Origin: a phage | Reading direction: 5' to 3' (one strand) | Length of the DNA stretch: 46,532 nucleotides | Sequence record: PZ379549.1 | Part shown: piece by piece, positions 1,008-46,532 of the stretch | How positions within the stretch are numbered: position 1 is the stretch's first letter | Layout: every line of letters starts with the position of its first letter | Translations under genes and position numbers: made by a program | The notes under the pieces: model-generated | The model's input: the letters and a program-made list of their open reading frames with translations, nothing else | What the model was told of the DNA's origin: nothing | Database searches by the model: none

Positions 1008-1264
1008 TCATCGTTAAATGGTTCTTCTAAATCCCAATCAGAGCAGATTTCGTTAATCAATTCTTTGGTGCTGAAGTTCTCACGGTTAAGAATCTCCTGC
1101 AACTCAGATGATTTCTTGTGCTTAACTGTTAGCACTACTTCTGCATCATCGCCATTAGCTAACTGGAACTTAACTGGAAGTTTAAAGTCAGGCAGCGCCT
1201 TAAGTGAAAGTTTAAATTTTGCCATCTCGTTATCTCCTTTGTTTGTGTTTGTTGATTGTAGCAT
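911..1264 (-). CDS. tail assembly chaperone (lambda gpG-like)
   Basis: 117-aa acidic ORF directly downstream of major tail protein and upstream of tape measure, with overlapping -1 frame ORF. Confidence 0.55.
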   Translation of the reverse strand: MLQSTNTNKGDNEMAKFKLSLKALPDFKLPVKFQLANGDDAEVVLTVKHKKSSELQEILNRENFSTKELINEICSDWDLEEPFNDENVEEFANLFPAAVPSLMDSYMKALAGQRVKI

Positions 1265-1272
1265 AAAGTGCT

Positions 1273-1300
1273 ATCAATAAAAAACCCTCCGAAGAGGGTT
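1273..1300 (-). terminator. rho-independent terminator after major tail protein gene
   Basis: Minus-strand RNA AACCCUC-UUCG-GAGGGUU followed by UUUUAUUGAU. Confidence 0.7.
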
Positions 1301-1304
1301 AATT

Positions 1305-1964
1305 TTATACCAGTTCAGAAGCTACAGAACTCAGCCTACCACGGATAGATACTGCGATGGATACCGTTTCGATTTCGTTGACACCAATGCTAGGGGTGTC
1401 GTTGAAAGCGATAGTGCCAGACTGAAGGCGCATCTCACTAGCGCGAGGTACGAACAGACGAATAGCAACAACAGTACCAGCTTCGTCATAGTTACGCAGA
1501 ATCGGATATACCGGGTTGGTGTATTCGTGCGCAAACGTGTAGGTGTTGGTTACCGCAGACTTATAAGTTGGAATCTGCTGCTCACGATCATCAGATAAAC
1601 ACTGGAAGTTAACGAACTGCTGTTCGCCGCCATCAGTGGATACGTCCTGAACACAAGGAACTTCAAACCAAGTAAGAATCTTAACAACTTCACCAGTTAA
1701 GCCAGCTGGGAACTTAGTGGTGTTGGAGGTATCAATACCTTCAACAGTTACGGTTGAACCAGATACCTCGGTAACGCGAACTTGCTTATCAGCCAGCAGG
1801 GTCGAAGCTGAGCTGGTAAATAGCAGGTAATCACCGCGTGCAATATCAGCAACGCTGGACAAAGTTAAAACAGGAGTAACAGCATTGGAAATTGCAGTTA
1901 CGTCGATAGCAGCTCCGCGAGAGCCTTCTACGAACACCTGGGTGCCGTTTGATAAGTGAGCCAT
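1305..1964 (-). CDS. major tail (tube) protein
   Basis: 219-aa ORF with AAGGA RBS; immediately upstream of G/GT chaperones and followed by strong terminator. Confidence 0.6.
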   Translation of the reverse strand: MAHLSNGTQVFVEGSRGAAIDVTAISNAVTPVLTLSSVADIARGDYLLFTSSASTLLADKQVRVTEVSGSTVTVEGIDTSNTTKFPAGLTGEVVKILTWFEVPCVQDVSTDGGEQQFVNFQCLSDDREQQIPTYKSAVTNTYTFAHEYTNPVYPILRNYDEAGTVVAIRLFVPRASEMRLQSGTIAFNDTPSIGVNEIETVSIAVSIRGRLSSVASELV

Positions 1965-1979
1965 GTATTTTTCCTTTTG

Positions 1980-2381
1980 TTAGTCTAGACGAACATAAAA
2001 ACGAACCGGGATAAACCACCCAGACTTGGATTTGATAACGGGGTTAACAACTCCAGACTCATAAATGGTCCCGCTGTCAAGCATTGTACCATCAACGATA
2101 GATTCTGCCAATTTATTAGCGATTTGTCTGGGCCTGTCAATTCCAGTACCAGGACTGAAGAATACTGAAATTTGAACCATGCCTACGTAGTATTTGCACT
2201 TCCTGCTTAATCCGTAGGTTACGGTGTCAACCTCTGTATAGTCGTACTTAAGCCAGATTGATCCATCGGCAGGAGGAGTAAACTTACAGTTCTCCCAAGC
2301 GACTGGATATCTGACCGGAAATTCATTTACCAACAAATCGTTGACGAATTTCCTTGCTGCTAATGATAATTCATATTGCAC
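1980..2381 (-). CDS. putative tail terminator / neck protein
   Basis: 133-aa ORF between neck block and major tail protein; function inferred from position only. Confidence 0.35.
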   Translation of the reverse strand: MQYELSLAARKFVNDLLVNEFPVRYPVAWENCKFTPPADGSIWLKYDYTEVDTVTYGLSRKCKYYVGMVQISVFFSPGTGIDRPRQIANKLAESIVDGTMLDSGTIYESGVVNPVIKSKSGWFIPVRFYVRLD

Positions 2382-3927
2382 GACGTAGCCTCCTCTACAG
2401 CTTCCTGGAAATACCTGCCCAACCTTGCTTGCACCACGCCAAGAACGCCAGCCGGAGCCTGATTCGAAGCCCCATACTCAAGGTCAGCAGGCGTAATCAA
2501 GCCTGTTAGTTATGTAGATAACACTTTGTCGCTGGTGAATTAGCCACAGCTCGAGCTTGCCTTGCCAGATACCTTTTTGTATGCTCCACCTGTTTTGATC
2601 GTAATCATTCAGAGACTGAGCTGAGCTGGGGAGTTCGCTGTAATCTGCCAGTTAGCCTTAAACCTACCAGTATCAACAGGCGATAAATCCACGATGGCGT
2701 TAGCAGCCTTAATTACCGTGTCGGCAGACAACAATATCAGAGAAGTTATCATCAGCTCTATCAATCCAATCAGCAATAGCTATTCGTCAAAGGTAGCCAA
2801 CACCACCAATATTTCTAGCCATAGGTAGCCACCCTCCTTAGAATTGGTCTGTAAGCCAACTACTAGTTCCTGTTGGTTTGACTGGCCTCGGGTCGACTAC
2901 AGTGTAAGTTTCATCTTCAACTATAATCCTGATAGCCCTGCAAGATTGCGGACTTCAGACAGTGAAAATTCCACGCTTGTCACCAAACTGGATATATTCG
3001 CCATCAATATCTCTGCGTTTTAATCTCCCTCACCAAGCCCCTTGATTGAAATGCAGTTGCCGCCAGCTACAGGAACCTCAACGCCGTCAACGATTTCGAC
3101 ACCATCCTTTACCAGTATTCATCTCGTGAATGTACCATCTGCCATCACTAAAGATAGTTGATGCCCGTGCGCATTAATTGATTCTACTTGGGAGTAATTC
3201 ATTGGCAACCGCACTCACCGCCAGCAGCGGACGTAATCAAGCCAAATCCGCCGCCTTTCTTGCGCAGGAGATTCCTAGTAAAGTGCGGCCCCACGGCGTA
3301 GCTGATCAATGATGACCTTGAGTTTGCGAGGTGGATATCATAAGCTGATAGAAAATTCACCGCTCAGCGGAGTAACTTGCCACCTTCTATGGCCATATAT
3401 CATCCAGCGACTTCATTCTCGCCCTTAAGCGCGCCATCAAGAAAGGCATCATGTGCAGATGTGTATAGTCCGACAGCGCTTTATAAGCATCATGCACCAA
3501 ACTTACTGGTCGCAGATGTATAGACTTAGCTAACTCAAGCCATACGTCCAGCGATTCGTCATCTGGAATATTCTTAAGAGCAGGAACCAGCGACTTGCAT
3601 AAAGGCTAATGCTTGTATCGTTCATAAAACCTCCATACAATAAACGGACGCCGAAGCGCCCTGTTTGGTTATTTGTACTCGTTGACCAGTCTCAGCCTCG
3701 GCAGATGGTTTTCGGTTCTTTGCGCTTATATTCTTGCTAACAACTTCTTGCGACGATTTGTTTGGTTGCCTTGGTGTCACCCTCAACCTGGTGAGTTGAC
3801 CCTCTGCGATTAAACGCTTGAGCCCAGTCGCAAATTACCTCAACCTCGAATGAGTGTCACCAGGCAAATATTTCTCACCTTTGTAAACGATAATCGTGCA
3901 CGCTCCAGTGTGTTCTAAACGAATCAT
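2382..3927 (-). pseudogene. frame-disrupted block of head-tail connector/neck genes (at least 4 genes)
   Basis: No ORF >=60 aa on either strand over about 1.5 kb; good RBS+ATG starts at 3927 (AAGGAG) and 3625 (GGAGG, ATGA overlap with upstream stop) each run into stops within 15-30 codons while adjacent frames continue protein-like sequence. Confidence 0.45.
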
Positions 3928-3993
3928 TTATTGCTCTCCTTTTATTAATTGATGGTTGATTATAACCCAACAAATCCATTTAGGTACAGACGT

Positions 3994-4016
3994 AAAAAAG
4001 CCCTCCATAAGAGGGC
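3994..4016 (-). terminator. rho-independent terminator after major capsid gene
   Basis: Minus-strand RNA GCCCUC-UUAUG-GAGGGC followed by UUUUUU. Confidence 0.65.
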
Positions 4017-4098
4017 GATTTATTACGCGAAGGTGATGCCTTTGATTACAGCCATACAGTCAGCGGGCGATAAACAATCAATCCCGTCGCTTTTGAGG

Positions 4099-4977
4099 TT
4101 ACCGGGTAGCGTGAAATGCAGGTCCTTCGGCTGAGCCAGGTAGCACGTTCGTCACTTCTGGAATCTCAATACTCAGGTTGAGCGGATCCTTTTCAAACGC
4201 CAGTGCAGCTTTGCCACCAGCACCGTCGTAGTTATCCAGGAATTGCAGATAACGCAGAGTGATGCCGGAGTTATTGGTTGCAAACAACTGCGCGTAGCTG
4301 ATAGAGGTGTTCGGCACCAGTTCTTGCATCAGGCGGCGAGCGGAAGCAGGCAGCAGGATATCAGTCGCGGTGTGAGCACCATTGGTAGCTGTTTCGATAG
4401 CATCGATAAGCGCTGTGATATCAGTCATAGCAGCAGCCGCGGAGTTCCACGTACCAGCAACAACCTGGTTAACGTTCGGACGCATTGAATACGCCAGGAA
4501 TGCCGTGCGGTGCAGAGCCAGACCATACCAGTTTATCGAGCAGGTTGTCATGCGCTTCAAAAGCCAATGCCTGTTTACGAGCTGACAGTGACTGACCAGT
4601 TGCTGCGCCAGCTTTGATTTCGTCGGTGGAAATCAGGAACGCGTTACCAAAACGGAAAACTTTGCCTTGCTTCTCGGTCATGAACGCATCAACCAGCGGC
4701 AAGGTCATCAGAGTAATCAGCGATAATCTGAGCAATTACCAACACCATCAAACTCTGGATATTCGAAATACTTCGCGTGAGCCAGGAATTTCATTAGTTA
4801 CCGGGAAGATATTAACAACTGAGTTTTCTGCGATATTCTTTTTCGTAAGCGCGATGTCAGAGCTAGCGGTCAAGCTGGCTTAACGGTCCAGATACCAGCA
4901 GCATCAGCTTTATCTACACCCATTTGCTCAAGGTGAGCGGTGATTTTTGCTTGTTCTGCATCAAATTTAATGGCCAT
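4099..4977 (-). pseudogene. major capsid protein gene, interrupted by at least 3 frame changes
   Basis: ATG at 4977 (MAIKFDAEQAKITAHLEQMGVDKADAAGIWTVKPA then stop); capsid-like segments continue in other frames (ORFs 4469-4735 and 4099-4560); position between decoration gene and neck block. Confidence 0.55.
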
Positions 4978-5085
4978 TCTTGTTTATTCCTTTTCAGTTA
5001 GGTATGTACGAGTCAATTATACACGACTTTGTGGTTGTTACAATAGCATCATACATGAGGCTTAAATCTGGATGGCAAAATACAC

Positions 5086-5108
5086 AAAAAAAAACCTCCC
5101 GAAGGAGG
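5086..5108 (-). terminator. rho-independent terminator after decoration gene
   Basis: Minus-strand RNA CCUCC-UUCG-GGAGG followed by UUUUUUUUU. Confidence 0.7.
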
Positions 5109-5129
5109 CTTGTTTAATTAATGATAATC

Positions 5130-5627
5130 TTACTTCTGCTTAACCTGAACTTCTACCAGAGGACCATCAACGCTATCACCTTGAGTTGGCATTGCGCCAT
5201 CTGCGGTTGCTGCGGGAATGAATCCGCCAGCGAATGTCCAGCCAGTTGCCACTCCGCCAGCTGCTGCGTCTGCAACAACTACGCCAGTTGAATCCACCAA
5301 AACGGCAATACCGAAGTTTGGCGCTACTGTAAGGTTAGTGCGCATCCAGATTCGGCCAGCGGTCATTACGTTAACAGCCTCTTTCACTTTAGCGGTGCCA
5401 CCTGGAGTCTCGTAGTGAGAACGAACAACTACGCCATAAGCCGCGTTTGCAGCAATACCAGTTGCAACAACGGATTTGTGACCATCAACTAACGGTTCTA
5501 GCGTAGATACTCTAACAGCTACACCAACCGGAATTGCATCGCTGCCGCCAACCACGCAAGCTCCGTCGATGTTATACAGAGAAGTATCAGCCACCATACC
5601 TGCCAGTGCTACAGAACGAATTGCCAT
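5130..5627 (-). CDS. putative head decoration / cement protein
   Basis: 165-aa Gly/Ala/Val-rich ORF between scaffold/protease and major capsid genes, flanked by terminator. Confidence 0.45.
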   Translation of the reverse strand: MAIRSVALAGMVADTSLYNIDGACVVGGSDAIPVGVAVRVSTLEPLVDGHKSVVATGIAANAAYGVVVRSHYETPGGTAKVKEAVNVMTAGRIWMRTNLTVAPNFGIAVLVDSTGVVVADAAAGGVATGWTFAGGFIPAATADGAMPTQGDSVDGPLVEVQVKQK

Positions 5628-5674
5628 GTATCTATCTCCTTACTTTTTAATTTTTGCTAAACGAGCGCGCGGGT

Positions 5675-6748
5675 CTAATTTCTTAGGCTGCGTCGGCAGC
5701 TATCAGATTTGTCGGAAGCTGCGGTTGCCTTGCGAACTTCAGCCATTTTATCAGAATCTTTGGCAATGTCGAACGCTGCATCGATGTATGCGTCGGACTT
5801 CTCGGAAACATCAAGGCCGGAAACTTCTTTAACGTATAATACCTTAATGCCTTTAGCATCCAGGCCATCAGTCTTAACACCAGCTTCAGTGGCTACAGTA
5901 ACCAGAGCGGCAAGTGCTTCAGCGTCAGCTTTGGCAGCTTTGACTGCTTTCTCGATTTCAGCGGGCATTGCGTCTACTTTGGCTTTCAGTGCGTCACGCT
6001 CAGCTTCGATGGAATCAACCTTAGCTTTCTGTGCTTCAACAGCGGAGTTAATTTTGGAGATGTGGTCTGCAACCTCTTTAGACACCTCAACTTCAACAGA
6101 GTCAATCTTAATCTTAACTGTCATTTTGTTTTCCTTAGTATTTAAATCAACGTTGTCAGTATACGGGTTTTCTTGCTGCCCGTCCATATTTAGCTTAGCA
6201 ATTCCAGCCCTACCCCTGAAGACCATAGCTAAATGGTTTACCTTAATGTCTCTCTGGATTGCGTCGAACTCTTGCCAGTCAGGGGGTATATCCAAACCCT
6301 GCGTGTTGTCAGTCCTAAGAATGTACTTACCAGTTGCCGGGTCGCCCCAACCTGGAGTTTCATCAAGAACTGCCGAGTAACCTACAGATAATTCCTTAGC
6401 GTTACCTGAGCGAGCCTCGTCAATAGCTTCTTGAGAGTATACGACAATTGGCGCAATTACCGTACTTCCTAGAGCCTCAGCTTTACCAGTTACCGAGCCG
6501 ACCACTACGTCTTTAGCGTTATCGGAGTTTACAAAGACGTGGTCAAGAGTCATTGGCTTACCCTGGTAACTGGCTAGCGACTCCTCTTTGAAGACTTCTT
6601 CTGCTGGCCTGAACTCTCGAACAGTCGAACCATCCTCTGTGAAATAAACCTGCACACCAACCCTTGCTACTACTGGCGTATCGACGAGAAAACCATTCTC
6701 GTCAATGGTGGCTTTGAATGTTGCTGTATCAAAGCGATTCTTATACAT
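5675..6748 (-). CDS. putative prohead protease / scaffold protein
   Basis: N-terminal globular part plus C-terminal coiled-coil (KAKVDSIEAERDALKAKVDAMPAEIEKAVKAAKADAEALAAL); ATG 6748 with GAGGAG RBS preferred over GTG 6763. Confidence 0.45.
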   Translation of the reverse strand: MYKNRFDTATFKATIDENGFLVDTPVVARVGVQVYFTEDGSTVREFRPAEEVFKEESLASYQGKPMTLDHVFVNSDNAKDVVVGSVTGKAEALGSTVIAPIVVYSQEAIDEARSGNAKELSVGYSAVLDETPGWGDPATGKYILRTDNTQGLDIPPDWQEFDAIQRDIKVNHLAMVFRGRAGIAKLNMDGQQENPYTDNVDLNTKENKMTVKIKIDSVEVEVSKEVADHISKINSAVEAQKAKVDSIEAERDALKAKVDAMPAEIEKAVKAAKADAEALAALVTVATEAGVKTDGLDAKGIKVLYVKEVSGLDVSEKSDAYIDAAFDIAKDSDKMAEVRKATAASDKSDSCRRSLRN

Positions 6749-6796
6749 CCCAATTCTCCTCACTAAAATCCATCGAATTCATCTTTCATCCTCATG

Positions 6797-11890: not shown

Positions 11891-11966
11891 TGGTGTTCCG
11901 CACTGGACTCGAACCAGTAACTAAGACTTAGGAGGTCTTTGCGTTATCCTGTTACGCCAGCAGAAC
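11891..11966 (-). tRNA. tRNA-Arg (anticodon CCU, reads AGG)
   Basis: Hand-folded 76-nt cloverleaf: acceptor GTTCTGC/GCGGAAC, D-arm GCGT-AACAGGATA-ACGC, anticodon arm AAGAC-CTCCTAA-GTCTT (U33, CCT, A37), variable AGTT, T-arm ACTGG-TTCGAGT-CCAGT, discriminator A, encoded CCA. Confidence 0.8.
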
Positions 11967-12912: not shown

Positions 12913-12990
12913 ATCTCTATCTCTCTTCGTTGTTTGATGGGTTAATTATATGGCATCCATGCCTGTCATGTTTAGCAATTCGTGCTATCC
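12913..12990 (-). promoter_or_regulatory. box-hairpin-(-10)-leader unit
   Basis: Box 12971-12990, hairpin GGCATGGATGCC, ATATAATT, CCCATCAAACAACGAAGAGAGA, ATG 12912. Confidence 0.4.
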
Positions 12991-13112
12991 ATTTTATCTT
13001 CACGCTCTTTCCATAGATTCATTAGCTCGAAGTACATCATGGCAACCTCGCCAGTCTTAGCCTCATCCATCATCCGTTTAGCCCACTGGCTTGGTGTTTC
13101 GTAGTTATCCAT
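12972..13112 (-). CDS. hypothetical small protein ending ...MDSTNC
   Basis: 46-aa ORF translated by hand; last 5 codons and stop encoded by the box. Confidence 0.3.
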   Translation of the reverse strand: MDNYETPSQWAKRMMDEAKTGEVAMMYFELMNLWKEREDKMDSTNC

Positions 13113-14258: not shown

Positions 14259-14335
14259 ATCTATACTCCATCTCGTTGTCGATGTGGTAATTATGCCGGA
14301 TTTCTCCGGCAATTGTTTAGCAATTCATGCTATTC
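14259..14335 (-). promoter_or_regulatory. box-hairpin-(-10)-leader unit
   Basis: Box 14315-14335, hairpin GCCGGAGAAATCCGGC, ATAATTAC, CACATCGACAACGAGATGGAG. Confidence 0.4.
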
Positions 14336-14482
14336 ACCGATTTCATCACGAAGAACATAACACTCAACACCCCCTCCAAGAACGTCCAGCTGAGATTTTG
14401 CATCTTCGTAACACTCATAAGCCCGAATATGCTTAACGCTGTTGAATTTTCCCGTATAGTATGTGTGAACGTAATAAATCAT
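14330..14482 (-). CDS. hypothetical small protein
   Basis: 50-aa ORF; stop TAG lies inside the box. Confidence 0.3.
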   Translation of the reverse strand: MIYYVHTYYTGKFNSVKHIRAYECYEDAKSQLDVLGGGVECYVLRDEIGE

Positions 14483-14942: not shown

Positions 14943-15017
14943 ATCCTCTTTTGCTTTGCTTCAATAAGGCCACTATATCAAATGGCCTTGCGGAAGGTTT
15001 AGCAATTCGTGCTATTC
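14943..15017 (-). promoter_or_regulatory. box-hairpin-(-10)-leader unit
   Basis: Box 14998-15017 abutting stop of 15016-15201, hairpin AAGGCCA..TGGCCTT, TATAGT. Confidence 0.4.
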
Positions 15018-15201
15018 AAAACTTAACATCAATTATGACTTCAACCATCTCCTGCCCAAGCCGGTAGGAGTCGCCCCAAAGAAGTAGTCCCATAAACTCA
15101 TCCTTACTAAAAGTGTTGGCATTTACAGTTCTAAGATAGCCACGATGGATAACAGTATCGCCAATCTTAACTTCGCTCTTATGTACCATTTTAGTTTTCA
15201 T
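15016..15201 (-). CDS. hypothetical protein
   Basis: 61-aa ORF. Confidence 0.4.
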   Translation of the reverse strand: MKTKMVHKSEVKIGDTVIHRGYLRTVNANTFSKDEFMGLLLWGDSYRLGQEMVEVIIDVKF

Positions 15202-16407: not shown

Positions 16408-16495
16408 TACACCATATACATACATATATATAATAATAATAATAATATAGTAAAAGGTTGATATATATAGATATTATTATGTAACCATTGCGTAA
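16408..16495. repeat. AT-rich control module copy A, includes (TAA)5 microsatellite at 16431-16447
   Basis: About 85 percent identical to 35357-35439 by eye. Confidence 0.6.
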
Positions 16496-16642
16496 TCTAG
16501 CGTGGTAGGCGTGTATGATTCTTCGGAAGCGCACCTCATATACACACCATAACTTCGATAACGTGTATATCCAAATTGGCTCAGCAAGAATCAAAATCAA
16601 CTTGTATGGTAGTCCATCCACCATTCATTCACCCCACATCGA

Positions 16643-17759: not shown

Positions 17760-17923
17760 TGCTTTTACCATCTGATATAAACTATTTCGATCTGGAAATA
17801 ATTAGTGCTTACAGCGGAAAGGGTTGGCCTTGCGGGGACTGGTTTAACGAGGACCTGCTTGAGTCTCACGAGATTATGTTGAAGGCAATTGAGAAGGCCA
17901 GAAAAAATAGCACTAATTGCTAA
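17759..17923 (+). CDS. hypothetical small protein ending ...KNSTNC
   Basis: 54-aa ORF translated by hand; C-terminus and stop encoded by box. Confidence 0.3.
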   Translation: MLLPSDINYFDLEIISAYSGKGWPCGDWFNEDLLESHEIMLKAIEKARKNSTNC

Positions 17924-22083: not shown

Positions 22084-22160
22084 TTTTGAATCCTCTGTTG
22101 TTTTCGATGTAGTAATTATGCCGGATTACTCCGGCGATTGTTTAGCAATTCGTGCTATTT
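22084..22160 (-). promoter_or_regulatory. box-hairpin-(-10)-leader unit
   Basis: Box 22140-22160 (encodes kinase C-terminus NSTNC), hairpin GCCGGAttacTCCGGC 22120-22135, ATAATTAC, CATCGAAAACAACAGAGGA. Confidence 0.45.
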
Positions 22161-22696
22161 ATTACGTGCATTACCAAAGCAGAGGTTCCATCAATATCAC
22201 CATCTACAACATGAACGTCAATTTCTCTTGCGCAGACACCGCGAATGTAGGAGCGGCTATCTCCATCAAAAGTATAGCCAGGCCTAAAAAGTCTAATCAA
22301 AGTAACTTCAACCCCTGAATCAATGAGAGTATTAATCTCGCTAGCGAAGCCACCATCAGCACAGATATAGCAACCATCACCAAGTGATTGCGCTAGCCTT
22401 TTACCGAAAACATCATCACCAAAGACTGGCTTCATAACTGACTCACTAATCCAAATCATAAATTCACGAACCGTCATTCCACCAAGAAATTCATGTGGTG
22501 ATTCTTTGTACTCTCGGTCATCGTAATTCTTAATAAATTCATCAAACTCATCGCTTGATAGTATTCCTTTTGCAACATTAAACATTGGTGACTTGAATGA
22601 AACCTTATCCTTGCAAATTCCAAGATTAACAATGATATCTGCAACTGTATCTTTTCCAGCACCAGGGGGTGCATTAAGGATGATTAACTTTTTCAT
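22142..22696 (-). CDS. P-loop nucleotide/polynucleotide kinase
   Basis: Walker A LNAPPGAGKDT; ATG 22696 right after upstream stop; track start is upstream alternative. Confidence 0.55.
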   Translation of the reverse strand: MKKLIILNAPPGAGKDTVADIIVNLGICKDKVSFKSPMFNVAKGILSSDEFDEFIKNYDDREYKESPHEFLGGMTVREFMIWISESVMKPVFGDDVFGKRLAQSLGDGCYICADGGFASEINTLIDSGVEVTLIRLFRPGYTFDGDSRSYIRGVCAREIDVHVVDGDIDGTSALVMHVINSTNC

Positions 22697-25505: not shown

Positions 25506-25590
25506 TTTCTTTCTCTCTTTGTGTGTTTCGTTTCGATGAGTTGATAATACACCAACTCACCAATTCGTCTTTAGCAATTCGTGCTATTTT
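25506..25590 (-). promoter_or_regulatory. box-(-10)-leader unit
   Basis: Box 25570-25590 overlapping upstream stop TAG, TATTAT, CTCATCGAAACGAAACACAC. Confidence 0.4.
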
Positions 25591-32647: not shown

Positions 32648-32677
32648 AAAAAAGCCCCGAAAGGGGCTTTATCTTTT
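32646..32677. terminator. bidirectional rho-independent terminator
   Basis: A8-AGCCCC-gaaa-GGGGCT-TTATCTTTT between convergent tail fiber and SSB genes. Confidence 0.8.
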
Positions 32678-32678
32678 A

Positions 32679-33116
32679 TCAGAATGGAATATCTCCGTCG
32701 AATGTGTTTTGCTGTTGTTGTTGTTGTTGTTGCTGTTGATGTTGCGGTTGATGGCGCTGTTGTTGCTCTGTATTTTTATGTTGCTGTGCACCCTCACCAC
32801 GCTGACTAAACTCAAGACGAGGATTGTTCATGTTAATTGTTATGTAAGTCTTGCCATCTTTATCTCGAACATCTAATGCTAACGTCTCACAACTTACGCT
32901 AACAATCTTCCCTTCCTGAAACGCTTCGTTATACCATGTAAGCATTGATTCCTTTGCGAAGAAGACGGCACGATAGTTGCTATACTGAGATTGACCATCT
33001 TTATCCTTGTAACGCTCACTTAAATCAACCGCGTACATCTTCCAACTGCCATTTGCATTCTGACCTTCTTTAGTGAACGGAGCGCGACGGATAACACCAG
33101 TGATTACATGACTCAT
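32679..33116 (-). CDS. ssb: single-stranded DNA-binding protein
   Basis: OB-fold-like N-terminus, Gln-rich linker, canonical acidic C-terminal tail ending DGDIPF. Confidence 0.8.
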   Translation of the reverse strand: MSHVITGVIRRAPFTKEGQNANGSWKMYAVDLSERYKDKDGQSQYSNYRAVFFAKESMLTWYNEAFQEGKIVSVSCETLALDVRDKDGKTYITINMNNPRLEFSQRGEGAQQHKNTEQQQRHQPQHQQQQQQQQQQNTFDGDIPF

Positions 33117-33156
33117 TTTCTTTCTCTCTTAATGTTGGGGCCGCAGCCCCGTTAAA

Positions 33157-33807
33157 TTAGAATGTGTCGATTTCTTGAGATTGTACTTCAACTTTTTCTT
33201 CTTGAACAGACTTTTGTGCAACCTGTTTAGGTTTTGCAGGATTGAAGCCGTTAGTTGCATTAGCCTGAATTTCTGCCTTACGCTCAATGATGTGAGGTTC
33301 AATCACCAGCCAACCAGCTGAATCAAGAGACTGCTTGGCTTCTTTGTATACATCACGCAGGTCATCAAGAGTGTTGCACTTAGCTAAATCTTTCTTAAAT
33401 GAGTTGATACCCTTAACTGCAAGCTGACCATCATCATCTGCCTGGCTCAATCCTAATGCCGCTGTAATTGCATAACGGCGAGCATATGTAAGTGATGAGC
33501 CGTAACCTTGAGCATCTTGCTTGCTGATTGGGACGATTGTCAGGAAGCTGACCCACTCTCCAGATTCTGCATGATAGACAGTTGTTTCAACCTTAATTCT
33601 AGTTGTGGCTTCATCATCAATCATGCCTTGAAACATGACCAGGCCGCTATCTGCAAGGCCAGGCTCTACAGCCGCCAGTACGTCTTCCAGGGTGGCGTAC
33701 CTGTTCTTTAGGTGCGAGTTCTGCTTTGACTTTTCAGCCTTTGCAAACTTTGATTTGGCCTCAAATAAAGCCTTCAATACTTGCTTGTTTTGATCTGAAG
33801 TTTTCAT
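33157..33807 (-). CDS. Erf-family single-strand annealing protein
   Basis: Erf-like core ...QGYGSSLTYARRYAITAALGLSQADDD... Confidence 0.65.
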   Translation of the reverse strand: MKTSDQNKQVLKALFEAKSKFAKAEKSKQNSHLKNRYATLEDVLAAVEPGLADSGLVMFQGMIDDEATTRIKVETTVYHAESGEWVSFLTIVPISKQDAQGYGSSLTYARRYAITAALGLSQADDDGQLAVKGINSFKKDLAKCNTLDDLRDVYKEAKQSLDSAGWLVIEPHIIERKAEIQANATNGFNPAKPKQVAQKSVQEEKVEVQSQEIDTF

Positions 33808-33884
33808 TAACTATCTCTCTTTCGTTTAAGTGGGGCAATCATACCTCACCTTTTGATTTTGTCTTTAGCAATTAGTGCTATTTT
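33808..33884 (-). promoter_or_regulatory. box-(-10)-leader unit upstream of erf
   Basis: Box 33863-33884 containing exonuclease stop TAG, TATGAT, CACTTAAACGAAAGAGAGA. Confidence 0.4.
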
Positions 33885-35047: not shown

Positions 35048-35356
35048 TTCTGTATCTCTCTGTTTGCTTGCTTGCTTGCTTTCGATGGTTTAACTATATA
35101 TTCAGCGCCGCACCCAGTCCAATTGGTTTCGCCAATCGTTGATTTAAGTTTACGCGTGAATTCTTGTAATTCCGTGTGTACATTGGAACTAGTTACGTTT
35201 TTTGGTACCTGAGCCAAGCTATAGCTCAATGTAAATAGTGCGTATATCATGTATATCATTTATTGCTGAGGGTGCATTGGTATAGCTACCGCGCAATACT
35301 GTATAAATCCACATGATATTAAAATTATAACCGAAACACTCCATAAGAGCAGTTAC

Positions 35357-35439
35357 ATGATATACATAGTAATATATATAATAATAATAATAAGAGTAAA
35401 AGGTTGATATATATATATATTTTAATGTAACCAATGCGT
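35357..35439. repeat. AT-rich control module copy B, includes (TAA)n and (TA)n tracts
   Basis: About 85 percent identical to 16408-16495 by eye. Confidence 0.6.
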
Positions 35440-35515
35440 AAATTGGCGTAACATTGCGTATATCATTTTTCGCGGATGAGATTGCATACATCGAGTTACA
35501 TCGGTTACGCGTAAA

Positions 35516-43149: not shown

Positions 43150-43171
43150 TAAAAAAGGCCCTCTATGGGCC
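43150..43171 (-). terminator. rho-independent terminator between M and L
   Basis: Minus-strand RNA GGCCC-AUAGA-GGGCC followed by UUUUUUAUUGG. Confidence 0.65.
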
Positions 43172-43176
43172 TTAGT

Positions 43177-43527
43177 TTAACTCATTGAAGTAAAAACTTC
43201 AGTAAATTGCATGCTAACAGTCTGGACTTCTTTTGTGCTAGGAGTGACGCTGATACTATCCTGCTGAATAACAAACAGCTTTAATTCACCCTGTGGCGTA
43301 GTCCATGCGAAAGGTTTTACAATGTGATCAAAGCAGAAGTTCATTACTGCCTCCCACTCACGACCAACGTAGCTAACCGTATACGTCCTTTTGTTTGTCC
43401 TGTATCCTCCAGTACCCCTTTGTTCAAAGCCGTTGCCAAAGGATACAATTCTAACGTTGTTCTTGTTACTAAATAATGATCCACCGTTGAGAACGTTCAA
43501 GCACCAGTTAAATGTTTGCAATGCCAT
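43177..43527 (-). CDS. minor tail protein (lambda gpM-like)
   Basis: 116-aa ORF immediately downstream of tape measure. Confidence 0.55.
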   Translation of the reverse strand: MALQTFNWCLNVLNGGSLFSNKNNVRIVSFGNGFEQRGTGGYRTNKRTYTVSYVGREWEAVMNFCFDHIVKPFAWTTPQGELKLFVIQQDSISVTPSTKEVQTVSMQFTEVFTSMS

Positions 43528-43558
43528 TTAAAATCCTTAGGGGCCGAAGCCCCGTTAA

Positions 43559-46532
43559 TTAGTTGTAACCCCTCAGATAAGCAAAGGCTCTTCCGCCCTG
43601 CTGGAATGACTTGCTGATTTCCTCAGCAACGATAACCTTGACTCCAGATTCTATCGCCTTAGCATCATTTCCGCCACCAATTCCAGAGTTTACGTTAACC
43701 GTCACGCCGCCAACACTGACATTCGTGCCACCAACAACTCCACCATTAGCATAGCCAGAGGGCCCACCAACAGCGCCGCCATTTGCATAACCTCGCATTA
43801 GCTTGTACAGGTTCTTAACGCCAATCCTGCTTGTAGCTTCTTTTGTGAATACAAACTCACCGCGGTGCACAGTTCCAGCAGGTTGATACTTCCCGCCGTC
43901 TCCAGTGTAGCCGCCACCAGCAAAGCCAATTGCTGACTTTATTGACTCAAAGGCACTACCTGCTCCAGTGTCACCACCAAAGCTCTTAATTGTAGATTCA
44001 ATAGCCTTTACCAAAAGTAGCTGAGTTGCAATTTTCGCAATCATTTTCAGTATGTTTGCCGTGAACTCCCTGAAATTAGTCTCTCCAGTGGTTACAAGGT
44101 TTGTAATCTGGTCGGTAATTCCATCAAAAGCTGCGACAGTCAAATCCTTAGCAATTTGGTTGAAGTCAGTGTACTTCTCAGTTAAGTCAGCAAGCGTTGA
44201 AGTTACACCAGCTTGCCAGTCTGACCTTAGGTTATCTTCCTGCCTGTAGTATTCTTTTCTTGCTTCCAGCAGATTTTGGAAATCAACATCATTTACAGAG
44301 CCACCCTTGTTTACCTGATTGGACTCTAGCGCCTGAAGTTCTCCTGCCCTTTGCCGCTCCCTTTCGGATAGACCCGCAGCAAGTGAAACATTCTTCGCCT
44401 CATTGGTAATCTGTATTGTCTTCTTAAGGTTGTCATCAAGTAACTTGTTTGACCTCTCCTGAAGCACAATCTGGTCACCAAGTTCAGCCTTCTGTTTAGC
44501 CTGTTCAAGAATGATATTCTTCTGCGCAAGTAGCTTAGCCTGTGATTTTGTAAGCGTACCATCCGCTTGTCTTTGTTCAAGTATTGCAAACTTCGCTTCT
44601 TCCTGGAATAACTGCTTTCTTTCATTGCTTATTACATCATTTATCGTTCTGTGCTCTTGTAAGACCTTTAACTGAGCCTGAAGTGCAAGAACGCCAGATT
44701 CATAAGATAAAGTTAAATCACTTTCTTCTTTTACAGCCTTTTTCCTCTCACTCCTTGCTTTCTTTATCGCATCATACTCATCGGCAAGAGCCTTCTTCCT
44801 TGCTGCAAACTCCTTATCGGTTGATGCATTATTGCCGCTAAGGTTGGTGTTATTGTTGTTCTCGACATAACCAAGCTCACCCTTCCTGATTCTCGCATCT
44901 CGCTCAGCTATGCTTTTTGCTAACTCCTCATTTTGCTTCTTAGCTGCATCAACAATCTTTTGCTGCTCAGCGATTGCTTCATTGCCTAAATCGCCAAGTC
45001 CAGGTATTGACTGAAGTGTCTTGGTTGCTGCTATTGCAAACTCGCCCAATAGGATATCACCGGAGTTTATTAACGACCTTATCTGCTCAATAGTCCCAGC
45101 AACAACGTCAGTTATTAAGTTAAGCGCCCCAAGCGTCCTTTTGCTTATATCATCCCAAATCTCACTTACAAACTTCCTGAAGCTATTCCATGCGCTCTCA
45201 AGAGGGTTAAGGCTTAGTGCTACGTCTGCTAGCCTGTTTTCCATAACGTTAGCGAATAGCTCAGTAGCTGCGGTTACAGCCTCTGTTTCTCCAGCCGTCT
45301 TCCTGATATTCTCAATGTATTTCAATTGCCCAGACTGAAGGAAGTTGAACTGCTTATCGAGTGCAATCAGACCTTGAATTGGGTCCTTTGTAATCTGATC
45401 AAAGTATCCAAGAATAGTTTTCGAGTCTGTTGATGTTACAGTTGCCCATTGTGCTGTCGCCTTGGTTATCTTATCTATCTGCGTAAGAGTCAGATTACCG
45501 TTTGCTACCAGGCTGTTAGCTATCTCCTGGATAAGTCCGCGCGTGGCTAGTGTTGAACTCTCAATTCCATCAACAACCTGATTTATCTGCGCTGTCGACG
45601 TGATAGTTGAGTTGCCAACCAATGTTATCGTTGATGCTAGTCCGCGAGTGTTCTTGTCAGCCTGATAAGCAGCAACACCAAGAGCGCCGAGGGCCAAGCC
45701 CAAAGTCCCAACAACTGCCGTTAATGGGTTAATGGCTGCCAGTGCGAACCTTGCGGTGTTAGCAATACCACCAAAGCTATCCTTAATCTGCCCACCCTGC
45801 TGAATTGCAATTAGCCAGATTGGGATACCACCAGCTAGAGAGGTTCCGATATCTGTAATCTGCGCTGGAAGCTGTCGAATTGCTTGCTTGTATTGACCGG
45901 CACTAAGCCCAGACTTAACAAAAGCGGAGCTTTGCTTCTGCAATTGTACCGCAGATGCCTCGGCAGCCTTTCCAATCCTGTCGATAATCGGTGCAGCCTG
46001 GTCACCAACTCCTAGCTGAGCAGCCTTAAGCTGAAGAAGTTCAGTCCTTGTCAGGCTTGCTGCATTCGCCTCGTTCTCAAGAGATTGAATGAACTTTTGC
46101 GCTGCTGTTGTTGCTTTCTCTTTATCTATTGATGCCTGTAGTGCAGCCCTGCCTTCTTCGCTAAGAGCGGCTTTAGACCTGTTTAGCTTATTGATTTGAG
46201 TTTCAATAACAGAGCCAAGCCTGAAGAATTCATCATCAGGAACTATCCCGGATTCAAATGCTTTGTCCAAATCTGTTGCTGCTTTCTGCAACTTCAGGAA
46301 TTTAGCAGCGGTTGGGTCTATGGCTTGCTGAAGTGATGCGAAAGATTTGCGCTGCTCCTCAAGCTGCCTTGCAGTGTCCCTTGCTTGAGTCTTGGCTACA
46401 AGTTCGGCGTTGACGAAGCTATTAATGCCTGTTGCAGCTTGCTCGTTTGCTTGCCTGAATTTCTGTAAGGATTGCGTACCCTTATCGACCTGAGCTACGT
46501 CGACGGCTAGCGTGATACCAGCAATTTCGTTA
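43559..46532 (-). CDS. tail tape measure protein, 5' end runs off window
   Basis: Long alpha-helical Ala/Gln/Lys-rich ORF; track start 46291 is TTG; hand translation shows frame open from 46291 to 46532. Confidence 0.8.
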   Translation of the reverse strand, partial: NEIAGITLAVDVAQVDKGTQSLQKFRQANEQAATGINSFVNAELVAKTQARDTARQLEEQRKSFASLQQAIDPTAAKFLKLQKAATDLDKAFESGIVPDDEFFRLGSVIETQINKLNRSKAALSEEGRAALQASIDKEKATTAAQKFIQSLENEANAASLTRTELLQLKAAQLGVGDQAAPIIDRIGKAAEASAVQLQKQSSAFVKSGLSAGQYKQAIRQLPAQITDIGTSLAGGIPIWLIAIQQGGQIKDSFGGIANTARFALAAINPLTAVVGTLGLALGALGVAAYQADKNTRGLASTITLVGNSTITSTAQINQVVDGIESSTLATRGLIQEIANSLVANGNLTLTQIDKITKATAQWATVTSTDSKTILGYFDQITKDPIQGLIALDKQFNFLQSGQLKYIENIRKTAGETEAVTAATELFANVMENRLADVALSLNPLESAWNSFRKFVSEIWDDISKRTLGALNLITDVVAGTIEQIRSLINSGDILLGEFAIAATKTLQSIPGLGDLGNEAIAEQQKIVDAAKKQNEELAKSIAERDARIRKGELGYVENNNNTNLSGNNASTDKEFAARKKALADEYDAIKKARSERKKAVKEESDLTLSYESGVLALQAQLKVLQEHRTINDVISNERKQLFQEEAKFAILEQRQADGTLTKSQAKLLAQKNIILEQAKQKAELGDQIVLQERSNKLLDDNLKKTIQITNEAKNVSLAAGLSERERQRAGELQALESNQVNKGGSVNDVDFQNLLEARKEYYRQEDNLRSDWQAGVTSTLADLTEKYTDFNQIAKDLTVAAFDGITDQITNLVTTGETNFREFTANILKMIAKIATQLLLVKAIESTIKSFGGDTGAGSAFESIKSAIGFAGGGYTGDGGKYQPAGTVHRGEFVFTKEATSRIGVKNLYKLMRGYANGGAVGGPSGYANGGVVGGTNVSVGGVTVNVNSGIGGGNDAKAIESGVKVIVAEEISKSFQQGGRAFAYLRGYN

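Follow-up and report, generated by a model that had tools for sequence, protein, structure and literature searches.

Two near-identical intercistronic hairpins in a Drexlerviridae phage as candidate mRNA decay barriers

What is the function of a short, GC-rich hairpin that a phage carries in almost the same form at two of its gene junctions? The question arises from phage record PZ379549.1, a stretch of 46,532 nt that was searched whole and is referred to here as the window. The window phage belongs to the Rtp-like group (Braunvirinae) of the Drexlerviridae, and its nearest record is Escherichia phage ES, with ~90% identity. An earlier reading of the letters alone (the sequence-only reading) had pointed to near-identical hairpins at two junctions, and it had the sequence, the copy number and the gene context right. 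Its position for copy 1 (33127-33148) was 10 nt off, and the element with its flank actually lies at 33137-33158, where the + strand reads GGGGCCGCAGCCCCGTTAAATT. Copy 2 is where it had been placed, at 43540-43560 between the tape measure stop and the M start, and the + strand there reads GGGGCCGAAGCCCCGTTAATT. The hairpins proper occupy 33137..33150 and 43540..43553 on the minus strand. As mRNA, copy 1 is GGGGC-UGCG-GCCCC, with five G-C pairs and a C(UNCG)G tetraloop, and copy 2 is GGGGC-UUCG-GCCCC, with the canonical C(UUCG)G tetraloop. Both hairpins are 14 nt long and have a 5-bp stem that is all G-C, with four pairs beyond the C-G pair that closes the loop.

The two copies are non-random, selected elements. 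They have in common the 19-mer GGGGCCGMAGCCCCGTTAA, which occurs exactly twice in the window and has no occurrence in 100 dinucleotide shuffles when up to three mismatches are allowed. A hairpin census of the window returned no 5-bp all-GC hairpins besides copies 1 and 2. The predicted minimum free energies are -10.5 kcal/mol for copy 1 and -9.6 kcal/mol for copy 2, and the hairpin fold accounts for 97-98% of the predicted ensemble (98% for copy 1). The flanking coding DNA of the window is only ~76% identical to that of phage Rtp, and both hairpins are identical in the two phages nonetheless. A function on the antisense strand was considered and rejected, as the loops on that strand (CGCA and CGAA) are not special, the fold is the weaker one at -8.7 kcal/mol and a U-tail is missing.

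Both hairpins sit in the narrow space between two genes on the minus strand. Copy 1 lies between erf (33157..33807), which encodes an ERF-family single-strand annealing protein (Pfam ERF, 1.5e-27), and ssb (32679..33116), the last gene before a terminator, whose product matches PHROG 44, single strand DNA binding protein (7.8e-28), and has no match in Pfam. Copy 2 lies between the tail tape measure gene (43559..46291; Pfam TMP_2 and Tape_meas_lam_C) and the gene for minor tail protein M (43177..43527; Pfam Phage_min_tail, 3.5e-17). The erf-ssb junction of the mRNA reads UAA-UUUAAC-GGGGC-UGCG-GCCCC-AACAUUAAGAGAGAAAGAAA-AUG, and the tape measure-M junction reads UAA-UUAAC-GGGGC-UUCG-GCCCC-UAAGGAUUUUAA-AUG. 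The erf stop codon UAA (33157-33159) and the 6-nt AU-rich spacer UUUAAC that follows it (together 33151..33159, minus strand) form a 5' flank in common with copy 2, where the tape-measure stop UAA (43559-43561) is followed by the 5-nt spacer UUAAC (together 43554..43561, minus strand). The sequence-only reading had described this flank, GTTAA(A)TT, as a shared 3' flank; it is indeed shared, but in the mRNA it is the 5' flank, UAA-UU(U)AAC, and it includes the upstream stop. The same reading had put the elements between the upstream stop and the next ribosome-binding site, and this is borne out by the distances: each hairpin starts 5-6 nt past the stop of erf or tape measure, and the Shine-Dalgarno (SD) sequence of ssb or M comes 1-7 nt after the end of the hairpin. 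The spacer before ssb (33117..33136, minus strand) is the 20-nt, A-rich and unstructured AACAUUAAGAGAGAAAGAAA, for which RNAalifold gives no conserved pairing; it contains the SD-like AAGAGAG at ~33124-33130, and the ssb AUG is at 33114-33116. The spacer before M (43528..43539, minus strand) is the 12-nt UAAGGAUUUUAA, in which the SD sequence AAGGA begins 1 nt past the stem of copy 2, and the M AUG is at 43525-43527.

The downstream gene is closed in both cases by a canonical terminator. After ssb, an intrinsic terminator at 32651..32670 (minus strand; AAAGCCCC-UUUC-GGGGCUUU, then UUUUU; tail score 4.0) is bidirectional, serves the convergent tail-fibre gene as well, and brackets ssb together with copy 1. 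After M, an intrinsic terminator at 43155..43173 (minus strand; AAGGCCC-AUAGA-GGGCCUU, then UUUUAUU; tail score 3.77) brackets M together with copy 2, and the orthologous site in phage AKS96 is annotated as a terminator. The short last cistrons ssb and M each have a hairpin copy in front and a terminator behind. As spacers of 12-20 nt leave no room for a promoter, we infer that erf-ssb and tape measure-M each lie within one transcription unit. A different element may head the first of these units. The exo-erf spacer holds a direct repeat of the T1 family, AAAATAGCACTAATTGCTAAAG (33863..33884, minus strand), which was recovered in several of the repeat families of the window and matches the 21-nt TLS/T1 direct repeat of PMC11447400, aaATAGCACnnnTTGnTAAAA. 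Its role for the erf-ssb unit may be that of a promoter or regulatory element. The T1-family repeat is found elsewhere in the window, for example at 14315-14336 and 22140-22161, and its motif, ATAGCAC...TTGnTAAA, is absent beside copies 1 and 2.

Comparison with relatives, one of the checks by which the hairpins were to be judged, shows that the erf-ssb element is a constant feature of the family. None of the 43 Drexlerviridae sequences that were compared (the window, ES, Rtp, T1, Rogue1, phiEB49, TH21, JLA23 and 35 IMG/VR contigs) lacks the hairpin, and copy 1 is identical in ES and Rtp. The stems fall into four classes, GGGGC/GCCCC, GGGGGC/GCCCCC, GGGCGG/CCGCCC and GGGCGGC/GUCGCCC. Members of the first class carry the loops UGCG, UUCG, UACG, UUAG, CUCG or UUCU, and the other classes are represented by GGGGGC-GAAA-GCCCCC, GGGCGG-GAAA-CCGCCC and, in T1, GGGCGGC-UUAG-GUCGCCC. 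The sense-orientation loops are mostly of the UNCG or GNRA type. Imperfect stems occur in two contigs, one with a single mismatch and the other with a bulge. Default MAFFT alignment of the junctions puts stems of unequal length out of register, and pairs were counted instead in a loop-anchored gapless alignment of 20 distinct sequences (15 from erf-ssb and 5 from tape measure-M). Of the 100 cells that the five inner pairs make up in this alignment, 97 are paired, and GC<->CG swaps are seen at three stem pairs. Its covariation score is 0.29, versus 0.095 for column shuffles; none of 500 shuffles reaches 0.29, and all slid controls score lower. We consider this covariation moderate and not overwhelming because the swaps trace to roughly three independent lineage events. 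RNAalifold applied to 10 diverse longer junctions retains only the 5-bp helix of the hairpin. The UU(U)AAC-type flank recurs at erf-ssb across subfamilies, and the 3' flank is A-rich in all of the orthologues. The distance from stop to hairpin is tight (5-8 nt) and that from hairpin to AUG is variable (10-29 nt), indicating that the element is tied to the 3' end of the upstream cistron. Family-wide conservation at erf-ssb, compensatory changes in the stem and, in a wider phage sample, a loop preference (UNCG or GNRA) confined to the mRNA sense all uphold the earlier suggestion that the hairpins are selected junction elements acting at the RNA level.

The tape measure-M hairpin has a narrower range, being confined to Rtp-like and Rogue1-like phages, where it is found in 11 of 14 contigs (one with a G-U variant). 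Copy 2 recurs unchanged in ES, in Rtp and in eight IMG/VR relatives, several of which appear under further locus ids, and AKS96 has a variant in which the outer pair is broken. The hairpin is absent from three contigs in which an HNH endonuclease cassette replaces the spacer, from T1-like phages, whose tape measure and M genes are 2 nt apart, and from lambda-like phages, in which stop and start overlap. Rtp-like and Rogue1-like phages have the same GGGGC/GCCCC stem at both junctions, and in the Rtp-like phages a similar UUAAC flank is present at both as well. The tape measure-M copy, missing from T1-like phages and displaced by HNH insertion, is evidently dispensable, an observation that sits uneasily with a role in mRNA decay. 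These losses are also what a relic or a DNA-level feature would allow, be it a decayed terminator, a palindrome bound by a protein, or a hotspot for recombination or homing, with no role in the mRNA. The hairpin is a 5+5 palindrome in the DNA, the homing-endonuclease cassette replaces exactly the tape measure-M spacer, and T1 does without this copy. We nevertheless consider such an origin very unlikely, as a non-functional 14-nt hairpin would not persist throughout the family with compensatory substitutions, and a bias toward UNCG and GNRA loops in the sense orientation only is a property of RNA.

Further copies were sought with a covariance model made from the 20 aligned sequences, a search that the sequence-only reading had proposed. 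On the window, the model finds only copy 2 (30.7 bits) and copy 1 (26.8 bits); the next match, at 13.9 bits, lies at 3641-3666(-), where a UUCG hairpin with a U-rich tail (tail score 1.25) is probably a weak terminator. Run on T1, the model detects the erf-ssb hairpin independently and, in addition, a U-less hairpin, GGGCGC-GAGA-GCGCCC, between terS and terL (17.7 bits). Rfam at its gathering threshold has no match at either hairpin, and in the whole window it matches a tRNA (11894-11966) and nothing else.

The motif extends well beyond the family. A scan of IMG/VR for TAAC-GGGGC-N4-GCCCC identified at least 120 contigs, with 122 occurrences among the matches listed. At most five of the 120 listed contigs are Drexlerviridae-like (three or more ORFs in common with the window) and another 26 have one or two such ORFs, and the motif is present in at least 115 viral contigs without clear relation to the window phage. 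The loops of the 122 listed occurrences include UUCG (54), UACG (8), GAAA (8) and GCAA (8), and the 54 UUCG loops versus 4 of its complement, CGAA, argue for selection on RNA rather than DNA. A U-tail follows only 30 of the 122 listed occurrences. Two unrelated contigs that were sampled have the same U-less hairpin directly 3' of the major capsid gene, which is the pattern expected of 3' stabilisers of well-expressed cistrons. The scan shows that the element type is common. One could go further and see in these hairpins a general and under-described punctuation code of phage operons, in which a U-less UNCG or GNRA clamp placed 5-8 nt past the stop and before the SD fixes stoichiometry through a specific factor or through the decay or translation machinery; the erf-ssb hairpin would then have controlled the supply of SSB throughout the family since ancient times, and it might be an autoregulatory SSB operator like that of T4 gene 32. 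We regard this broader proposal as a long shot. Many unrelated viral contigs carry the exact sequence TAAC-GGGGC-UUCG-GCCCC with an SD after it, and the evidence assembled here does not explain that recurrence away.

One possible function for a GC-rich hairpin just past a stop codon is to end transcription, and the sequence-only reading had named attenuation as a candidate. Copies 1 and 2 are comparable in stability to the terminator hairpins of the window, whose twelve U-tailed junction hairpins range from -7.4 to -14 kcal/mol, and they resemble the Rho-independent terminators of T1-like phages in hairpin strength, in tetraloop type (UUCG, GAAA) and in lying a few nt past the stop. They differ from those terminators in that an A-rich flank takes the place of the U-tract and no separate promoter serves the downstream gene. 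The GC-rich hairpin of an intrinsic terminator is present, but the U-tract directly 3' of the stem is lacking. The tails, AACAUUAA for copy 1 and UAAGGAUU for copy 2, have d'Aubenton-Carafa-type scores of 0.22 and 1.13, against 2.9-5.9 for the U-tailed hairpins, in keeping with the earlier remark that there is no strong U-run. No U-tract is found 3' of the hairpin in any of the ~43 erf-ssb orthologues. A simple terminator scan of the window did not list either copy, and the erf-ssb and tape measure-M sites are not called by TransTermHP, by WebGeSTer or in the manual annotation of AKS96 and T1; T1 has 23 annotated terminators. Our search of the literature on T1-like phages found no transcript-end mapping and turned up in silico predictions only. 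Canonical attenuation is unlikely: a U-tract is missing and the flank is rich in A, the downstream gene has no promoter to re-supply it, and the curated terminators omit these sites.

A less demanding version of this idea is that the hairpins are weak attenuators or pause sites that cause partial termination without a canonical U-tract and so lower transcription of ssb and M. Hairpin strength and post-stop position would suit such a role, a UUUU run lies distal to copy 2, 7-10 nt past the stem, and intra-operon terminators abound in this genome, as they do in that of T1. E. coli RNA polymerase terminates poorly without a proximal U-tract, however, and an A-rich flank throughout the erf-ssb orthologues suggests selection against termination. 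The low tail scores, the silence of the terminator annotations and the 12-20 nt spacers, with no downstream promoter to re-supply ssb or M, all point the same way, and we find weak attenuation distinctly improbable.

Processing by a ribonuclease is another means by which a junction hairpin could act, and cleavage by RNase III had also been suggested from the sequence. E. coli RNase III needs about two helical turns (~20 bp) of double-stranded RNA. A site of the T7 R-site type, with its extended stem that often contains an internal loop, was considered here and rejected, in that the stem has 5 bp, far below ~20 bp, and neither RNAfold nor RNAalifold yields a conserved extension; RNase III cleavage is not plausible. 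The UAAUU(U)AAC flank was compared with the RNase E consensus forms RAUUW and RN|WUU, and nothing usable as evidence for an RNase E site came of it: both copies fit loosely, and Rogue1, TH21 and T1 do not fit. That the RNase E-motif match of the 5' flank is not conserved in these three phages also speaks against a decay barrier. A stimulator of stop readthrough or frameshifting was considered and rejected. The spacer length is compatible with it, but a slippery site is lacking, translation stops at a UAA, which in some relatives is doubled to UAAUAA, and the downstream gene starts from an SD and an AUG of its own.

Position immediately 5' of an SD raises the possibility that the hairpins act in translation, by insulating the ribosome-binding site of ssb or M from long-range pairing with the upstream ORF, by providing a standby platform, or by blocking ribosomes that slide or re-initiate and thereby uncoupling the translation of adjacent cistrons. 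The hairpin is 1 nt from AAGGA at M and 3 nt from AGGA in the GGGCGG class of erf-ssb hairpins, and the predicted folds keep SD and AUG unpaired beside it. Among the U-less occurrences listed from IMG/VR, 51 of 92 have an SD and a start codon within ~35 nt, and the gap between hairpin and SD has a median of 6 nt over all 68 listed occurrences with an SD and start codon. Phages that lack the tape measure-M hairpin abut or overlap the two genes, an arrangement that amounts to direct coupling. Proximity to an SD is nonetheless weak evidence because the dense genome of a phage puts any intergenic element near one, and the variable spacing between hairpin and AUG at erf-ssb, set against the tight spacing from the stop, does not favor a role at the start codon. 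Moreover, RNAalifold gives no conserved pairing between the end of the upstream ORF and the ribosome-binding site that the hairpin could prevent or promote. One specific form of coupling, a clamp in which a lower helix joins the end of erf (UUCU) to the SD of ssb (AGAG), appears in several single-sequence minimum-free-energy folds, but it is lost in RNAalifold, and z-scores computed with the flanks do not improve on that of the hairpin by itself; as a conserved element it was rejected. We consider a translational function unlikely, if worth keeping in mind.

The reading that we prefer, with a probability of roughly 0.45 and thus somewhat short of even odds, is that both copies are intercistronic mRNA decay barriers, that is, stabiliser hairpins of the T4 CUUCGG type. 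It rests on position, structure and conservation, together with three precedents. Both stem-loops are at the 3' end of the upstream cistron, and the next terminator comes only after ssb or M, as would be expected of a decay barrier or of an element for selective RNA processing and stabilisation (SRPS). According to this model, RNA polymerase would pass through the hairpins, since they lack the U-tract for intrinsic termination. Cleavage inside the short distal cistron (ssb or M) would then expose a 3' end, and 3'->5' exonucleases would halt at the hairpin, leaving the upstream erf or tape-measure message to survive. Alternatively, a cut in the AU-rich stretch 5' of the hairpin would place the hairpin near a new 5' end, and the distal cistron would be capped by a hairpin at both ends; a decay barrier of this kind predicts processed 5' ends in UAAUUUAAC. 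Either route would uncouple the lifetimes of neighboring cistrons and so partly set their expression ratio. Read-through, exonuclease block and endonucleolytic processing are all steps that we infer, and a 5-bp stem may, judging from in vitro work, be too short for efficient stalling of PNPase. There is also no obvious need for more tape measure than M or for more Erf than SSB, and this too is at odds with a decay barrier. The suggestion of the sequence-only reading that the hairpins are processing or stability sites that set expression ratios is, in our view, plausible.

The first precedent comes from phage intergenic regions, in which hairpins of the CUUCGG class occur (Tuerk 1988, as cited in PMC8948821). 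As the T4 C(UUCG)G hairpins are portrayed there, they have a short GC stem, are intergenic and in the sense orientation in a virulent coliphage, and often have no U-tract, all of which applies to the hairpins described here. Both copies have a C-closed UNCG loop on the sense strand, four pairs flanking the core (the class has 2-8) and an intercistronic site. Copy 2 is an exact CUUCGG, and copy 1 is the UNCG variant CUGCGG. Relative to the T4 class as outlined in that source, the present elements come from a Drexlerviridae siphovirus, and an outer stem and a post-stop flank are common to both copies; in addition, the erf-ssb site is conserved in position across the family with swaps between UNCG and GNRA loops, and the stability is a predicted one. 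On this account, the element type has been recognised since 1988 (the class has been known since the 1980s), and the copies described here are further members of it.

The second precedent concerns an ssb gene itself. The T4 gene 32 (ssb) mRNA is processed by RNase E at -71, and the processed mRNA is unusually stable (PMC3014915). The parallel with erf-ssb is that a phage ssb within a polycistronic mRNA is preceded by a structured element; in T4, degradation removes the RNA upstream, and the ssb message is stabilised (PMC3014915). T4 gene 32 has a longer leader, a pseudoknot operator and autogenous repression by gp32 (PMC3014915), whereas here there is a 14-nt hairpin alone, 20 nt from the AUG, which also precedes a tail gene and for which cleavage is putative. 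This precedent brings up the possibility of a sequence-specific protein operator, either for SSB autoregulation that nucleates at the hairpin and spreads over the A-rich leader in the manner of T4 gp32 (PMC3014915) or for some other phage or host RNA-binding factor common to both junctions. The ssb leader is purine-rich and predicted to be unstructured, and Rtp-like and Rogue1-like phages use one stem at both junctions although the terminator stems of the genome are diverse. At erf-ssb, however, stem and loop class change wholly across subfamilies, which favors recognition of structure over recognition of sequence. The occurrence of the identical motif in contigs without clear relation to the window phage and the lack of any link between the tape measure-M copy and SSB also tell against an operator, and we think this explanation very unlikely indeed.

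The third precedent is the intercistronic decay terminator, of which the Rhodobacter puf operon and the E. coli REP element in malE-malF are examples. Intercistronic stem-loops have been associated with SRPS (PMC4423207), and those elements, like the hairpins here, are non-terminator stem-loops between cistrons at the 3' end of the upstream gene, and the proposal is that they fix how abundant the transcript segments are relative to one another (PMC4423207). SRPS elements usually comprise longer or multiple stem-loops with mapped processing sites, whereas the present elements have a 5-bp stem and are known from sequence alone.

For the annotation of these genomes, the two sites should not be labelled as terminators or RNase III sites. 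If the hairpins adjust mRNA stability segment by segment or insulate translation, they would be compact and portable parts for the design of synthetic operons. The hairpin at erf-ssb is a family-wide marker of the Drexlerviridae and could guide transcript-end mapping in T1-like phages. If they act in either of these ways, the hairpins would be part of the means by which a small lytic phage that relies on the host RNA polymerase tunes the ratios of proteins within its operons without extra promoters.

A third post-stop hairpin is present in the window at 3641-3666 on the minus strand, where UAA-CCAAACA-GGGCGC-UUCG-GCGUCC is followed by GUUUAUUGU. The hairpin is flanked by rtp28-like and rtp29-like genes, scores 13.9 bits with the covariance model of the junction hairpins, and is probably a weak terminator. 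Phage T1 (L047, 8927-8942) has a U-less GNRA hairpin, GGGCGC-GAGA-GCGCCC, in the gap separating the terS stop from the terL start, with the same stop-hairpin-start layout as the two hairpins of the window. The T1 record carries no annotation for this hairpin.

Alignment of the window to phage ES revealed 99 gap openings within 3.8 kb at 1259-5061 (5085-6763 is also affected), versus 14 gap openings within 10 kb elsewhere. In this region, homologues of the Rtp major capsid protein and of rtp28-rtp31 are each broken up across several reading frames. The excess of gaps together with the split homologues suggests that the head-tail connector region of the window assembly contains many indel errors or has undergone pseudogenisation. 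The phage ES record (L002, GenBank OR466728) should not be relied on for annotation. Its product names are displaced from the genes: erf, for example, is named 'head morphogenesis protein', and the name given to ssb is 'terminase small subunit'.

The 3' end of ssb in the window (32700-32790) contains CAA/CAG repeats that encode a glutamine-rich, low-complexity tract, QQQRHQPQHQQQQQQQQQQ, in the C-terminal region of SSB, which may be the reason that the protein has no Pfam match. A tRNA gene is located at 11894-11966 on the minus strand (Rfam RF00005, 58.9 bits); one Arg-tRNA has been reported in other T1-like phages. Two copies of a 96-nt, extremely AT-rich repeat (16408-16503 and 35354-35449) are 76% identical and contain (ATA)n and (TA)n runs. 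These repeats may be regulatory or origin-like regions.

The window also harbors a second repeat family with the consensus ATAGCA(C/T)nnnTTGCTAAA. At two minus-strand sites (14294-14336 and 22120-22161) the repeat precedes a hairpin with a GNRA loop (GCCGGA-GNAA-UCCGGC), after which comes ATAATTAC. Related copies occur on the minus strand at 12970-12991, 14997-15018, 25569-25590 and 33863-33884, and on the plus strand at 17903, 18683, 35513 and 36262. In four relatives (L010, at 458-1000, L053, L058 and L060), an HNH endonuclease gene situated between the tape measure gene and M has its own upstream ATAGCAC repeat, hairpin and TACAAT. The inserted gene replaces the whole tape measure-M hairpin spacer, and M starts directly after the HNH stop codon. 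The repeat family of the window matches the 21-nt direct repeat aaATAGCACnnnTTGnTAAAA, which has been reported from TLS, T1, Rtp and Rogue1 and for which roles as a promoter, enhancer or stoperator have been proposed, as suggestions only (PMC11447400).
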